A stretch of DNA of 2,216 nucleotides from Dictyostelium discoideum (lineage: Eukaryota): NCBI GenBank assembly GCA_000004695.1, contig CH709150.1, positions 1 to 2,216 of the forward strand, given 5' to 3'. The position numbers and the translations under genes were made by a program. Under the pieces are notes generated by a model that saw nothing but the letters and a program-made list of their open reading frames with translations, was not told the DNA's origin and did no database searches. This document shows positions 1 to 2,216 of this stretch, piece by piece (the first letter of the stretch is position 1; each line of letters begins with the position of its first letter).

Positions 1-171
1 TGAATTGGTATTAGATGAGAACATAGGTTCTTTCATGAATCTTGTAAAGGCTAAGGAAATGTTGTTGATTTGATCCTCCATTGATTTCATTCTTAAATCA
101 AAGGATTCAGCACTATTAGAGGCAGAGGTACTACTACTAGAGGCTTCATTATTATTAACAGTGGTAGACAT
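1..171 (-). CDS. 5' partial CDS (N-terminal 57 codons) of an Asn/Ser-rich hypothetical protein. It continues beyond the window start.
   Basis: Reverse complement of 1-171 reads ATG TCT ACC ACT GTT AAT AAT AAT GAA GCC ..., i.e. MSTTVNNNEASSSSTSASNSAESFDLRMKSMEDQINNISLAFTRFMKEPMFSSNTNS, with no stop. An in-frame TAA lies two codons upstream of the ATG (RC of 175-177), so this is the first Met. The context is A-rich (aaaatATGt). Third-position A/T codon bias fits an AT-rich eukaryote. The ORF track misses it because it runs off the window edge. Confidence 0.5.
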   Translation of the reverse strand, partial: MSTTVNNNEASSSSTSASNSAESFDLRMKSMEDQINNISLAFTRFMKEPMFSSNTNS

Positions 172-288
172 ATTTTATTGTTGATATCTAAAATTATAAT
201 ATGAGAAAAATAATAATATTAAAAATTAATAAAGAGAAATAATTATTTGTATAAAATTTGTGTGTGTGTATCTTAAATATATATAGGA
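172..288 (-). promoter_or_regulatory. Putative 5' UTR/promoter region of the 1-171 gene, >85% AT. It lies between the start codon and the TIR element.
   Basis: The call is by position and composition only. TATA-like runs (ttttata, tataat) are present but non-specific in such AT-rich DNA. Confidence 0.25.
259..268. repeat. (TG)5 alternating purine-pyrimidine tract with Z-DNA-forming potential, 20 bp outside the left terminus of the element.
   Basis: tgtgtgtgtg read directly. The only GT microsatellite in the window. Confidence 0.85.
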
Positions 289-390
289 GGAATTCCCAAA
301 TAAAATAAATCAAATTTTTTTAGTTTTTAGTGCCACTATTTATACGTTTTTATTTTCTTAAAAATTTCGCAAAACTCAAAAAAATAAGAG

Positions 391-492
391 TTTTCGACCC
401 TTCACAACTTTGTGCATAGTGTCGGTTCGGAATTTTTCAGTTTTTCGACCTTGCGCAATGATCGCGTCATTGTGCCGGTTCGAAATTTTTAC
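391..492 (+). repeat. Two tandem ~50-bp CpG-rich subrepeats inside TIR-L, with ~70% mutual identity.
   Basis: Unit 1 (391-440) is ttttcgacccttcacaactttgtgcatagtgtcggttcggaatttttcag. Unit 2 (441-492) is tttttcgaccttgcgcaatgatcgcgtcattgtgccggttcgaaatttttac. They share the tttcgacc and gtg.cggttcg.aattttt blocks. Each contains GGTTCG(A/G)A, which resembles the tRNA B-box GGTTCGANTCC in 8 of 11 positions. About 12 CpGs fall in 130 bp, against almost none elsewhere in the AT-rich DNA. Confidence 0.7.
453..475 (+). other. Hairpin-forming palindrome in subrepeat unit 2, with a 9-bp stem (including one G-T/U wobble) and a 5-nt loop.
   Basis: gcgcaatga-tcgcg-tcattgtgc. Pairs are g453-c475, c454-g474, g455-t473, c456-g472, a457-t471, a458-t470, t459-a469, g460-c468 and a461-t467. 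Confidence 0.5.
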
Positions 493-516
493 TTTTCTTT
501 CGAAAATTTTTTATTC

Positions 517-537
517 TTCGAATGTTATAGAACATTC
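517..537. promoter_or_regulatory. Heat-shock-element-like array in TIR-L: GAAnnTTannGAAnnTTC, four contiguous pentamer units of which three are perfect.
   Basis: ttcGAAtgTTataGAAcaTTC. GAA at 520-522, TTa at 525-527, GAA at 530-532 and TTC at 535-537, all at exact 5-bp phasing. It also forms a 7-bp inverted repeat gaatgtt/aacattc. Confidence 0.5.
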
Positions 538-581
538 TAAAAAATTATCTTAAATATTTGGGAAATTCAAATAAATAAATG

Positions 582-932
582 TTATTCATAATATATATAT
601 ATATATGATAATATAAATACGTTTGATAGTGGATAAGTGCTTGAATACTTGATTTGCATCCCATATCTCAACCTACCAGTCATAATTCTTGTAATGAATA
701 GATCATTAACAATATCAGTTTGATTCCTAAGGAGTAACAACTGATTCAACATAGAGCGATTACCGTTTATTGTGGAGAAGGCTAACGGAGGTTTGTGCTT
801 GAACAGATGTGTAAGATAATCCATGAAAACAACTAAAGTAATGTTTGCTGGATTCAAAGAGTTCAAAGTTTGGTCAATACTTCTTGGAATGTTTCCAGTA
901 TTTGAGGAAACATGTGACGATGATAACGACCT
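582..932 (-). CDS. Hypothetical open reading frame of 116 sense codons with no ATG at its 5' end (first Met at codon ~36). Possibly cargo, or a pseudogene fragment.
   Basis: The minus-strand frame is open from the TAA (RC of 933-935) to the TAA (RC of 582-584). It reads RSLSSSHVSSNTGNIPRSIDQTLNSLNPANITLVVFMDYLTHLFKHKPPLAFSTINGNRSMLNQLLLLRNQTDIVNDLFITRIMTGRLRYGMQIKYSSTYPLSNVFILSYIYIYYE. The 'M' in the ORF track at 864-866 is actually a TTG (Leu). GC is ~35-40% and CTG/CCG/CGC/GGG/AGG/CTC codons appear, which differs from the flanking gene usage. The last 7 codons only read through the (AT)n tract. Confidence 0.3.
   Translation of the reverse strand, partial: RSLSSSHVSSNTGNIPRSIDQTLNSLNPANITLVVFMDYLTHLFKHKPPLAFSTINGNRSMLNQLLLLRNQTDIVNDLFITRIMTGRLRYGMQIKYSSTYPLSNVFILSYIYIYYE
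595..617 (+). repeat. Direct repeat copy 1: atatatatatatgataatataaa. This is the inner-end motif of TIR-L.
   Basis: Identical 23-mer at 1140-1162. Both are followed by a[t/a][a/g]cg. Confidence 0.8.
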
Positions 933-1045
933 TTAAAATCACCTTAAAAATCACCTTAAAAATTGCTTAAAAATTTAATTTAAAGAAAATTTTAAAGGCA
1001 TTTTTAAATATCTTAAAAATTACCTTAAAAATTACCTTAAAAATG
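929..1045. repeat. Degenerate 12-bp minisatellite (A/G)(C/T)CTTAAAAAT(C/T), about 7 copies in two blocks, immediately upstream (on the minus strand) of the 582-932 ORF.
   Basis: acctttaaaatc 929-940, accttaaaaatc 941-952, accttaaaaatt 953-964, gcttaaaaattt 965-976, then a 33-bp spacer, then atcttaaaaatt 1010-1021, accttaaaaatt 1022-1033 and accttaaaaatg 1034-1045. Confidence 0.8.
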
Positions 1046-1057
1046 AATTTTTTAAAC

Positions 1058-1118
1058 GCGGCTTTAAATTCAATTTAAATCCAATTTAAATAAACTTTGC
1101 TTTAAATTTGCTTTAAAG
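1058..1118. repeat. Second short-repeat cluster with a TTTAAA core: (g/t)gctttaaa(t/g) x3 and caatttaaat x2.
   Basis: ggctttaaatt 1060-1070, caatttaaat 1071-1080, ccaatttaaat 1081-1091, ttgctttaaat 1097-1107 and ttgctttaaag 1108-1118. Confidence 0.7.
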
Positions 1119-1139
1119 GTGGATTTTTCTTTGCTGTGA

Positions 1140-1162
1140 ATATATATATATGATAATATAAA
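1140..1162 (+). repeat. Direct repeat copy 2: atatatatatatgataatataaa, internal to the element.
   Basis: Exact match to 595-617. Together the two copies bracket module A (619-1139). Confidence 0.8.
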
Positions 1163-1171
1163 AGCGATTAG

Positions 1172-1197
1172 CCTAGGAGATCTAGAAGTGTTTAAAC
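1172..1197. other. Cluster of overlapping 6- and 8-cutter palindromes resembling a cloning linker: AvrII CCTAGG, BglII AGATCT, XbaI TCTAGA, PmeI GTTTAAAC.
   Basis: cctagg 1172-1177, agatct 1178-1183, tctaga 1181-1186 and gtttaaac 1190-1197, all read directly. The cluster sits exactly at the junction between direct-repeat copy 2 and module B. Confidence 0.6.
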
Positions 1198-1780
1198 TTA
1201 TTGGCTGGGTTACTTTATTGATCGGCATCCCCTTTATTATATTCAATAAACAACTACAAAAATTAACCCATTGTTCCGAATAAGTCCATGGGAAGAACTC
1301 ATTTATTACTTGCTTAGACTAAGCCTGCTTATAGAGTATAGGATTTGGCTTGTTGTCTGATCATTATGGGGAAATAACCATTGGCGCTCTATCTGCACCG
1401 CTTATGGGAAGCACCCTATTTTGAGTACTTTTCGACCTACTTCCATCAGACATTGGCATAACCTTATGTGTATCTGTACCAACTAAATCTATCGCTATCG
1501 AAGTTATGTTTGAATTTGATGCGGGTCCAAATTGACCTCCAAACTCCGCAACAGGTAGCGTCAATTCCTACCCCCCTATCAGGATGCTAGGCAGCTTATT
1601 AACCCCAGAACAGAAAAAATCATGAAGGATAACCGAGCGATCCCATACCAGTAGGTTTTGGGCACCACATTCAATGCAAATTGGAGTATAATCGACCTGC
1701 TATTTGTGAAGGCCCCAACGCTTTTCATATTATAAAAAAATCTTACGTTTCTCCCTCAGATGCTAAAGTGAAGCCATAAA
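1198..1780. other. Module B, a ~580-bp non-coding island of roughly 40-50% GC. Candidate structured ncRNA or decayed foreign cargo.
   Basis: Stops are dense in all six frames; the longest ORF is 66 aa on the minus strand. GC was spot-counted at 37% for 1301-1360 and 50% for 1541-1600, against <20% in the flanks. No 3-nt periodicity or internal repeats were recognised. No rRNA, 5S, U6 or tRNA cloverleaf motif was recognised. Confidence 0.35.
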
Positions 1781-1878
1781 TTAAAAATTTAATTTATTAT
1801 ATTAAATATATATATATATATATATTATGAATAACATTTATTTATTAGAATTTCCCAAATATATAAGATAATTTTTTA

Positions 1879-1896
1879 GAATGTTCTAAAACATTC
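1879..1896. promoter_or_regulatory. Heat-shock-element-like array in TIR-R: GAAnnTTCnnaAAnnTTC.
   Basis: GAAtgTTCtaaaacaTTC. GAA at 1879-1881, TTC at 1884-1886, aAA at 1889-1891 and TTC at 1894-1896. This is the mirror copy of the TIR-L site. Confidence 0.5.
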
Positions 1897-1934
1897 GAAG
1901 AAAAAAAAAATTTCGAAAGAAAAGTAAAAAATTT

Positions 1935-1942
1935 CCACGTGG
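1935..1942. promoter_or_regulatory. CCACGTGG palindrome (CACGTG E-/G-box core) within the unique central block of TIR-R. It can pair with downstream ccaagtgg as a hairpin.
   Basis: ccacgtgg(ggcgataattatg)ccaagtgg has 7/8 complementary arms. This 45-bp unit replaces the two subrepeats present in TIR-L. Confidence 0.3.
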
Positions 1943-2057
1943 GGCGATAATTATGCCAAGTGGCAAAAACAGTTTTGTGAAATTTTTAAGAAAATAAAAA
2001 AAATAAAAATAGTGGCACTAAAAACTAAAACAATTTGATATATGGAATTCCAACTAT

Positions 2058-2073
2058 GGGCGGGTGGGATGGG
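2058..2073 (+). other. Canonical G-quadruplex motif GGG-C-GGG-T-GGG-AT-GGG, 7 bp outside the right terminus of the element.
   Basis: gggcgggtgggatggg has four G3 runs with loops of 1, 1 and 2 nt. It is extremely unusual in >80% AT surroundings. Confidence 0.8.
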
Positions 2074-2126
2074 ACTAATATATATAAATTTTTAATATGA
2101 AATATAATTTAATAAATTTTTAATCT

Positions 2127-2155
2127 ATTTTATCATATATATATATATTATGAAA
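2127..2155 (-). repeat. Extra inverted copy of the TIR inner-end motif (ttcataat(at)n gataa) located outside the element in the right flank.
   Basis: 2127-2155 is ttttatcatatatatatatattatgaa. Its reverse complement, ttcataatatatatatatatgataaaa, matches 585-613 (ttcataatatatatatatatatgataatat). It is also a direct repeat of atatatatatattatgaa inside TIR-R (1813-1832). Confidence 0.6.
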
Positions 2156-2216
2156 TTTGGACTACAGTATTTAAGAAACCACCAGATTTTTCACCAATGA
2201 TTCTTTTATCGTAGAA
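2148..2216 (-). CDS. Possible 3' end (last 22 codons plus TAA stop) of a minus-strand gene that enters from beyond the window end.
   Basis: RC of 2151-2216 reads TTC TAC GAT AAA AGA ATC ATT GGT GAA AAA TCT GGT GGT TTC TTA AAT ACT GTA GTC CAA ATT TCA, then TAA (RC of 2148-2150). This is FYDKRIIGEKSGGFLNTVVQIS*. Codon choice (GGT, AGA, TTA) matches the left-flank gene. The open stretch is only 22 codons, so evidence is weak. Confidence 0.3.
   Translation of the reverse strand, partial: FYDKRIIGEKSGGFLNTVVQIS

Follow-up and report, generated by a model that had tools for sequence, protein, structure and literature searches.

The first 2,216 nucleotides of Dictyostelium discoideum contig CH709150.1 (GenBank assembly GCA_000004695.1, forward strand; this entire stretch is referred to here as the window) harbor an array of AT-rich 11- to 12-bp repeats between a minus-strand open reading frame (ORF) and a 23-mer, and the question raised by this locus is whether such an array represents a replication origin, a regulatory region, or part of a mobile element. 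In a preliminary description, the array was placed at positions 929 to 1118 and was suggested to comprise iterons, promoter-proximal sites for the minus-strand ORF, or sites for a protein that mobilizes or replicates the surrounding element, with transposase-subterminal sites among the comparisons. The observation was confirmed with corrected coordinates of 929 to 1138, and its interpretation proved to be right in part, solely in the transposase-subterminal option. Positions 929 to 1138 very likely constitute the right-hand 210 bp of a short (approximately 0.8- to 0.9-kb), noncoding DNA transposon with terminal inverted repeats (TIRs), which is designated X (CACAGC(A/G)A...GCTGTG) and of which the window retains one truncated end.

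Repeat array and termini of element X

The repeats are real and lie far beyond chance expectation. According to Tandem Repeats Finder, 929 to 1044 form a period-12 array with 9.9 copies and 74% matches, and the period is 11 at 1063 to 1091 and again at 1091 to 1117. CTTAAAAAT, with no more than one mismatch, was found 20 times in the window against an expected 4.6 +/- 2.2, a number that none of 200 shuffles reached. Six exact plus-strand copies of CTTAAAAAT start at 943, 955, 966, 1012, 1024, and 1036, and one near-copy is located at 931. The copies of the preliminary description are present, as are its three gctttaaa(t/g) and two caatttaaat units, but the exact 12-bp phasing attributed to both blocks holds for the second (12 and 12) and not for the first, in which the spacing is 12, 12, and 11. 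Autocorrelation across 929 to 1138 peaked at lags of 11 (z = 5.4) and 12 (z = 6.5) relative to Markov-resampled controls, while an AT-rich control stretch of the same window gave no peak. Because diverged units also occur in the opposite orientation (989 to 997 and 1000 to 1008 on the minus strand, within 989 to 1008), the array contains local palindromes. The earlier argument that the spacing would place the repeated sites on one face of the helix is weak, as units of 11 to 12 bp rotate by approximately 17 to 51 degrees each, given a helical repeat of 10.5 bp. Furthermore, the array does not end at 1118 but extends to a conserved terminus, ...GGTGGATTTTTCTTTGCTGTG, the last base of which is 1138. 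The X-derived portion of the window is thus composed of the following features:

929 to 1095, minus strand: subterminal repeat region of the right arm of X, with approximately 14 units of 11 to 12 bp, cut off at 929 by a junction with DIRS-1; the unit types, read inward on the minus strand, are TTTTTAAGG(T/C)(A/G)A, with the plus-strand form (T/C)(T/C)ACCTTAAAAA, and TTTAAA(T/G)NNNN
1096 to 1138, minus strand: TIR of X, approximately 43 bp, CACAGCAAAGAAAAATCCACCTTTAAAGCAAATTTAAAGCAAA when read inward from 1138

The identification of X as a family rests on a comparison, by local blastn, with related loci (174 kb in total), among them contigs encoding homologues of the window ORF protein, all of these loci having been chosen via DIRS-1 proteins. 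They include a D. cf. discoideum contig (L003), another D. discoideum assembly (L008), and loci of D. citrinum (L009) and D. dimigraforme (L010). Matches to the array at 71 to 80% identity were found in L002, L003, L005, and L006, all of which stop at ...CTTTAAAGGTG.ATTTTC.TTGCTGTG, and the sequences past this terminus are unrelated between loci. Among the flanks are an ORF and a terminal repeat of DIRS-1 as well as fragments that are rRNA-like or belong to Skipper. Eleven further X ends, located in L002, L003, L005, L006, and L008, share the terminus of the window copy together with its TTTAAA/CCTTAAAAAT units. When 12 ends from six sources were aligned inward, CACAGC.A was invariant and CACCTTTAAAGC..A.TTTAAA was conserved. 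X was not found in L011.

Two of the copies are complete, at L008 2712 to 3492 (781 bp) and L006 3120 to 4009 (890 bp), and are 80% identical to each other. Both carry CACAGC...GCTGTG at the two ends, in inverted orientation and with approximately 43 bp of inverted identity, of which the window copy keeps one end (1096 to 1138). Their arms consist almost wholly of 11- to 12-bp units, TTTAAAG/T-NNNN and TTTTTAAGGTAA (TTACCTTAAAAA on the other strand), in both orientations and with an arm periodicity of z = 9 to 10; the two arms carry the same units in inverted orientation, beginning directly after the TIR. Arrays fill approximately 550 of 780 bp, the 781-bp copy in L008 being almost entirely arrays, and the center of X is unique over approximately 200 bp. 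As a complete unit, X adopts a panhandle fold (z = -12), and no ORF above noise was present in the X copies. In L006, positions 3120 to 3460 contain an internal tandem duplication of an approximately 115-bp array block (TTTAAATTCAATTTAAT GGCGC TTTTTAAAAATTCATTTTTAAGGCAA...), which shows that the arrays expand in whole blocks and not solely unit by unit.

The repeat motifs are closely associated with this element. The density of CCTTAAAAAT is 2.9 per kb in X and 0.01 per kb outside it, an enrichment of approximately 290-fold, and that of GCTTTAAA is 4.2 per kb versus 0.08 per kb. Clusters of these motifs are confined to X copies, save for one very small five-hit cluster at L003 2411 to 2423, so that, within the 174 kb, the 12-mer does not behave as the generic, element-independent satellite which had been named as the outcome that would refute the preliminary proposal.

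At one of the flanks, within the DIRS-1/Skipper cluster of the D. cf. discoideum contig, a fragment of a bacterial-type small-subunit ribosomal RNA (rRNA) gene lies directly against an X terminus (L003 17300 to 18200). It matches RF00177 with 398 bits over model positions 128 to 764, is cut at both ends of the searched stretch, and could represent an insertion of mitochondrial or bacterial DNA or an assembly chimera.

Complete allele of X and the junction at 929

The one true allele of the window, L008, also carries X and reveals how the window copy came to be truncated. Window positions 929 to 2216 are collinear with L008 2921 to 1639 (98.9% identity); past L008 2921, the rest of X continues for approximately 570 bp to the other terminus, at the point where the window instead contains a DIRS-1 fragment. 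A DIRS-1 left terminal repeat hosts the complete X of L008 in the (AT)n tract of its outer end, X being preceded by ...GAATATATATA (the left flank also being given as ...TTGAATATATATA) and followed by AATATATATATATGATAATATAAA and then unique sequence, and the remainder of this old terminal repeat is located directly across the complete X, at L008 3493 to 3860. Because L008 has a complete X inside the end of that repeat, the following feature of the window is recognized as a stub of the old repeat end:

1139 to 1162, unstranded: second 23-mer (1140 to 1162), preceded by an A; leftover outer end of an older DIRS-1 left repeat hit by X

An internal DIRS-1 fragment and a new DIRS-1 5' end occupy, in the window, the place of the old repeat and of the left 570 bp of X. 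As the junction at 929 lies inside both X and DIRS-1 coding sequence, it represents the breakpoint of a rearrangement as opposed to an ordinary insertion boundary, and the allele pair dates this rearrangement to after the insertion of X. At this junction, the left 570 bp of the window copy, and with them its second terminus, have been lost. Because one end is left, this copy cannot move, and its array is an immobile relic without a role for the neighboring ORF.

It had also been suggested that the array represents a promoter-proximal array of transcription factor sites for the minus-strand ORF (582 to 929), immediately upstream of which it is indeed located on that strand. This ORF, however, was juxtaposed by rearrangement. 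The junction at 929 cuts DIRS-1 coding sequence, approximately 55 N-terminal residues being absent from the window ORF relative to P0021 and P0007, and a deletion of approximately 190 bp near 868 is accompanied by a frameshift. In L008, moreover, the array is followed by more of X and not by the ORF, and the corresponding region of intact DIRS-1 is internal and transcribed from the left terminal repeat (PMC3950715). A regulatory function of this kind is considered extremely improbable.

The allele pair further allowed the stability of the array to be assessed. Across the shared 210 bp, unit number is the same in the window and L008, and the divergence amounts to two substitutions (0.95%, from one allele pair), compared with a divergence of 0.33% in the unique part and 2.3% in the DIRS-1 part of the alignment. 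The conditions that the preliminary description had named as refuting its proposal gave mixed results, hypervariability being one of them: between the two strains, the array is not hypervariable, nor is it unusually conserved.

Putative function and affiliation of X

Because the units start directly after the TIR, occur inverted in both arms, and persist in copies at 70 to 80% identity, the arrays of X are built like the subterminal repeats of nonautonomous cut-and-paste transposons, and by analogy with such elements the units are most likely transposase-binding sites. A transposase supplied in trans by an autonomous partner would bind at multiple units and join the two X ends for excision, and the copy number of the array is probably shaped by slippage and block duplication (indels of 11 to 13, 48, and 66 bp). 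The suggestion that the repeats are sites for a mobilizing protein is, therefore, retained in its transposase-subterminal form, but the element concerned is the separate, truncated TIR element X and not the one that had been envisaged. The binding of transposase to subterminal repeats, as in En/Spm, applies to CACTA elements too. Among hAT and CACTA-type elements, short subterminal repeats are well recognized and are believed to take part in transposition, and for hAT elements transposase binding to such repeats has been proposed (PMC4298943).

The insertion sites of X were compared for evidence of target duplication. At L003 7449 to 9917, X interrupts a DIRS-1 ORF whose uninterrupted sequence is present in L004 and L002 (paralogous copies, not alleles), and the target ...ATGGATCT... 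has become ...ATGGA, followed by X and then GATCT..., which corresponds to a 2-bp duplication of GA. The X copy in L006 is flanked by AA on both sides. These two sites point to a probable 2-bp target duplication of X.

Several points weigh against the interpretation of the array as the end of a transposon whose units bind a transposase. No transposase or autonomous partner with X termini was found in the 174 kb, and binding is something that we infer. The target duplication is inconsistent, L002 having TT/AA and both L008 and the window having TA/AA (or a 10-bp AATATATATA in the AT tract) as flanks, and X was not seen in the sampled D. citrinum (L009) or D. dimigraforme (L010) loci. Stronger conservation of the A/T cores (90%) than of the spacers (71%) when the two complete copies are compared (TIR, 89%; center, 84%) speaks for the interpretation but is biased, in that array alignments anchor on the cores and A/T-rich cores are favored by the mutational bias of the genome. 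Finally, unit number and order differ widely among X copies, with indels of the sizes given above, and slippage alone would produce the same result.

The latter consideration leads to the alternative that the array is a minisatellite in a dead transposon, generated by replication slippage and unequal exchange of an AT-rich 11- to 12-bp unit, with units that have no sequence-specific function. Such an origin would be in keeping with the extreme AT richness of the genome, with the base-perfect adjacent units at 955 to 976 and 1022 to 1045, as expected from recent local duplication, and with the whole-unit and block indels among X copies and the tandem duplication in L006. It does not, however, readily explain why the same unit types occur, inverted, in both arms of every X copy and directly after the TIR, why the motif is so strongly enriched in X when no arrays occur elsewhere in 174 kb of equally AT-rich DNA, or why unit number is constant between two strains; slippage accounts for changes in copy number but not for a unit family kept at both ends of diverged copies. 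The minisatellite explanation is thus regarded as unlikely, and the two explanations are mutually compatible.

With respect to known transposon families, X resembles nonautonomous cut-and-paste transposons, that is, the derivatives of hAT, CACTA/En-Spm, and similar elements akin to miniature inverted-repeat transposable elements (MITEs), in being short and noncoding with a conserved TIR, in carrying a 10- to 12-bp motif many times in both arms, direct and inverted, with a panhandle, and in having dispersed copies whose flanks are unrelated and which show, at the cleanest site, a short target duplication. It differs from MITE-like elements in that the arrays take up most of the element, and its terminus, CACAGC, matches neither the CAG/TAG of hAT nor the CACTA of CACTA elements. 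The start with CAC, the subterminal repeats, and a possible 2-bp duplication amount to no more than a resemblance to CACTA-related elements, among which the TRC elements are reported to generate 2-bp target duplications (PMC4298943).

For D. discoideum, the described groups of DNA transposons are Tdd, DDT, and thug (PMC5633606), of which DDT (DDT-A/B/S) and thug are attributed to Glöckner et al. 2001 (cited in both PMC5633606 and PMC2665215). DDT elements make up approximately 20% of the centromeric DIRS clusters of D. discoideum, in the form of 151 fragments averaging approximately 1 kb (PMC2665215), and the location and fragmentation of X in the same host match this description. X is, therefore, probably a DDT-type element, and perhaps the short one, an assignment suggested by location and fragmentation; text searches of the literature for DDT-S and thug-S yielded no sequence features. 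According to its published description, thug-S contains an intron and gives rise to microRNAs (miRNAs) (PMC4894637), while X has no gene model and none of the listed miRNAs, which speaks weakly against an identity with thug-S. Tdd-4 and Tdd-5 (Ginger2) are likewise TIR DNA transposons of the same host and of the same clusters, and a fragment of an rve-type integrase adjoins the X copy of L006. A derivation of X from these elements was rejected, as they possess TIRs of 260 to 297 bp and 5-bp target duplications (PMC2836005), in contrast to the approximately 43-bp TIR of X and its 2-bp duplication at the clean site.

A host-level structural role for the X arrays in centromeric DIRS clusters was also considered, whether through bent DNA, the positioning of nucleosomes or CenH3, or the supply of hairpins as a source of small RNAs. 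The strong 11- to 12-bp periodicity of the A/T tracts, the finding of X copies in DIRS-1/Skipper clusters only, and the long hairpins formed by the inverted arrays, with weak, subthreshold Rfam matches to MITE-derived miRNA families, are in line with such a role. The cluster association, however, is an ascertainment effect, in that the loci were chosen via DIRS-1 proteins, and the Rfam matches are far below gathering (30 versus 90 bits). For complete X, the Rfam matches were subthreshold only, for example to mir-548 (30 bits, gathering 90), the mir-548 family being itself MITE derived; the window gave likewise only a subthreshold match, to CRISPR-DR50 (24.6 bits, gathering 47), and all these matches reflect AT-rich hairpins. 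Furthermore, published miRNA sequences, including those associated with thug-S, are absent from X (PMC4894637). This role is deemed very improbable.

Only slightly greater weight, still that of a long shot, is given to the broader notion that X is an undescribed MITE-like family, the phased A/T arrays of which could affect centromeric DIRS-1 clusters (through bending, nucleosome or CenH3 positioning, or small RNAs) and the B-box-like center of which could recruit RNA polymerase III factors. Were such recruitment to occur, it would represent a new way of shaping the landing of mobile elements, in a genome whose retroelements often home to transfer RNA (tRNA) genes.

The center itself, at approximately L008 3160 to 3310, is the best-conserved part of X and is absent from the window copy. 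It contains B-box-like or tRNA T-arm-like motifs in opposite orientations (GGTCCTGAATTCGAAGCC ... GGGATTCGATCCCCCGACCC) with a T-rich run between them, a tRNA likeness which is an impression only; ARAGORN on the X-bearing loci and Rfam on X detected no tRNA. In the left arm of the L008 copy (3349 to 3436), inverted CCTTAAAAAT and ATTTTTAAGG units form a near-perfect hairpin, to which the weak matches to miRNA families such as mir-548 belong (28 to 30 bits, gathering 90 to 94).

Taken for what it is, the array of the window is almost certainly an ordinary feature of an already catalogued kind, and neither a replication origin nor a gene regulator. Its study has provided a usable definition of X, comprising the terminus, the TIR of approximately 43 bp, the family of 11- to 12-bp units, the size, and the probable 2-bp target duplication, and the X arrays, with their CCTTAAAAAT and GCTTTAAAG units, are natural baits for the still-uncharacterized transposases of Dictyostelium DNA transposons.

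DIRS-1 pieces and unique sequence of the window

The importance of these results is mainly one of annotation, since what had been supposed to be a single unit is a pile-up of four unrelated pieces in a D. discoideum DIRS-1 cluster, namely two DIRS-1 ends, an internal DIRS-1 fragment, and one X end. The contigs that encode homologues of the window ORF contain gene clusters with RVT_1, RNase H, and Phage_integrase domains (the DIRS-1 signature; architecture described in PMC3950715), mixed with Skipper-type (gag-protease-RT-rve) elements. Besides X and the second 23-mer, the window comprises the following features:

1 to 618, minus strand: 5' end of DIRS-1 copy A; window 1 to 619 aligns with L004 11268 to 10694 (86%), L001 8106 to 8739 (91%), and L002 8905 to 9519 (90%)
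1 to 175, minus strand: start of ORF I (GAG) of copy A, with its ATG at 175, MSTTVNNNEASSS... (MSTTVNNNE...); the ORF exits at the left window edge
Approximately 290 to 618, minus strand: left inverted terminal repeat of copy A, with its outer end at 618, matched many times over by the DIRS-1 terminal repeats of L002, L004, and L008
595 to 617, unstranded: first 23-mer, ATATATATATATGATAATATAAA, outer terminus of the DIRS-1 left terminal repeat
622 to 929, minus strand: internal DIRS-1 fragment, N-terminal region of the tyrosine recombinase, described earlier as an ORF at 582 to 866
1163 to 1775, unstranded: unique sequence of 613 bp, flanked on one side by the stub of the old DIRS-1 repeat and on the other by copy B with its right repeat, outside the array
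1776 to 2216, minus strand: 3' end of DIRS-1 copy B, with the C terminus of ORF III at 2216 to 2150 and the right inverted terminal repeat at 2150 to 1776

The assignment of the left end to DIRS-1 is supported by L004, in which a 335-amino-acid gene starts at 11098 and is followed by a gene for reverse transcriptase, RNase H, and Phage_integrase; L006 has the same ORF I start, MSTTINNNDASSS. At the right end, window 1777 to 2216 aligns with L004 15423 to 14948 (85.6%), corresponding to the end of the reverse transcriptase/RNase H/recombinase gene and the right repeat, and L008 1639 to 2079 is 97.7% identical to the 3' end of copy B.

The window contains a long inverted repeat (arms 483 to 606 and 1810 to 1933, 95% identity; 305 to 367 and 1981 to 2043). 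A single small TIR element with these arms as its ends, spanning approximately 290 to 2052 and carrying both the ORF and the array, was a candidate, which was rejected because both arms run into DIRS-1 coding sequence past the window edges and match different canonical DIRS-1 ends. Since each arm matches a different DIRS-1 end, the inverted repeat instead pairs the left repeat of one DIRS-1 with the right repeat of the next. The array, in turn, was not accepted as part of DIRS-1 itself, being absent from the full DIRS-1 copies in L002 and L004, with 929 to 1138 unmatched in L001, L004, and L007.

The internal fragment aligns within the gene which encodes RVT_1, RNase H, and Phage_integrase in L004, window 622 to 869 corresponding to L004 14443 to 14166 and 868 to 929 to L004 13975 to 13914. 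The window ORF has 24 homologues in D. discoideum, D. cf. discoideum, D. citrinum, and D. dimigraforme, all of them hypothetical proteins (59 to 92% identity) and one of which contains PF13495, a phage-integrase SAM-like domain. A Pfam search of the window ORFs returned nothing, the identity of the ORF having come from these protein homologues.

Such findings bear directly on the iteron interpretation, in which the large inverted repeats would delimit an autonomous element, for instance a nuclear plasmid or a virus, and the array would represent its replication origin or partition site. Phased direct repeats do adjoin an AT-rich tract and an ORF at this locus, and, as in plasmid and viral iterons, they are short and of roughly helical spacing; Dictyostelium, moreover, harbors nuclear plasmids with inverted repeats. 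Nevertheless, the large inverted repeats are the terminal repeats of two DIRS-1 copies that extend past both window edges, and the ORF is a truncated, internally deleted fragment of the DIRS-1 recombinase region and not a Rep gene or other initiator. The locus is found in chromosomal DIRS-1/Skipper clusters in several assemblies, with no initiator gene or autonomous replicon, and, in contrast to iterons, the units are found in either orientation and in each of the two ends of a mobile element, arrays of identical type forming the ends of a dispersed 0.8-kb TIR element. The likelihood of an origin is, therefore, next to nil.

With regard to the DIRS-1 terminal repeats, window 585 to 618, which includes the first 23-mer, matches L004 15010 to 15043 and L002 792 to 825 and 6814 to 6781, all at 100%, and the 23-mer motif recurs at the boundary between ORF III and the right repeat of DIRS-1 copies. 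This recurrence fits the published complementarity of the DIRS-1 long terminal repeat ends with an internal complementary region (PMC3950715). Alternating TTC/GAA motifs resembling heat shock elements (TTCGAA, GAAnnTTC, and GAACATTC) are present at 499 to 540 and mirrored at approximately 1876 to 1917, and such motifs would be consistent with the stress-inducible transcription reported from DIRS-1 repeats (PMC3950715). The left and right terminal repeats are noncollinear midway, with approximately 115 bp between conserved blocks on the left (368 to 482) and 47 unrelated bases on the right (1934 to 1980), and the left repeat contains a direct repeat, TTTTCGACC(C/T)T..., at 391 to 407 and 442 to 458. 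At the end of the right repeat, an (AT)n tract (1806 to 1810) shows a 4-bp length difference between the window and L008, which represents ordinary microsatellite variation.

The unique sequence at 1163 to 1775 has a G+C content of 40% (peaks of 44 to 47%), which is unusually high for Dictyostelium noncoding DNA, and is 99.7% identical between the two strains. It had no match in the 174 kb of related loci by blastn or tblastx except in the allele L008, no Rfam match, no excess RNA structure (z = +1.4), and no convincing ORF under an alternative (ciliate) genetic code. The sole protein match, obtained in a concatenated-frame search, was P0025, a gene model on the same locus (L008) whose first exons are identical to the window; this model is chimeric, splicing the sequence of 1163 to 1775 to Skipper-like gag/protease sequence.

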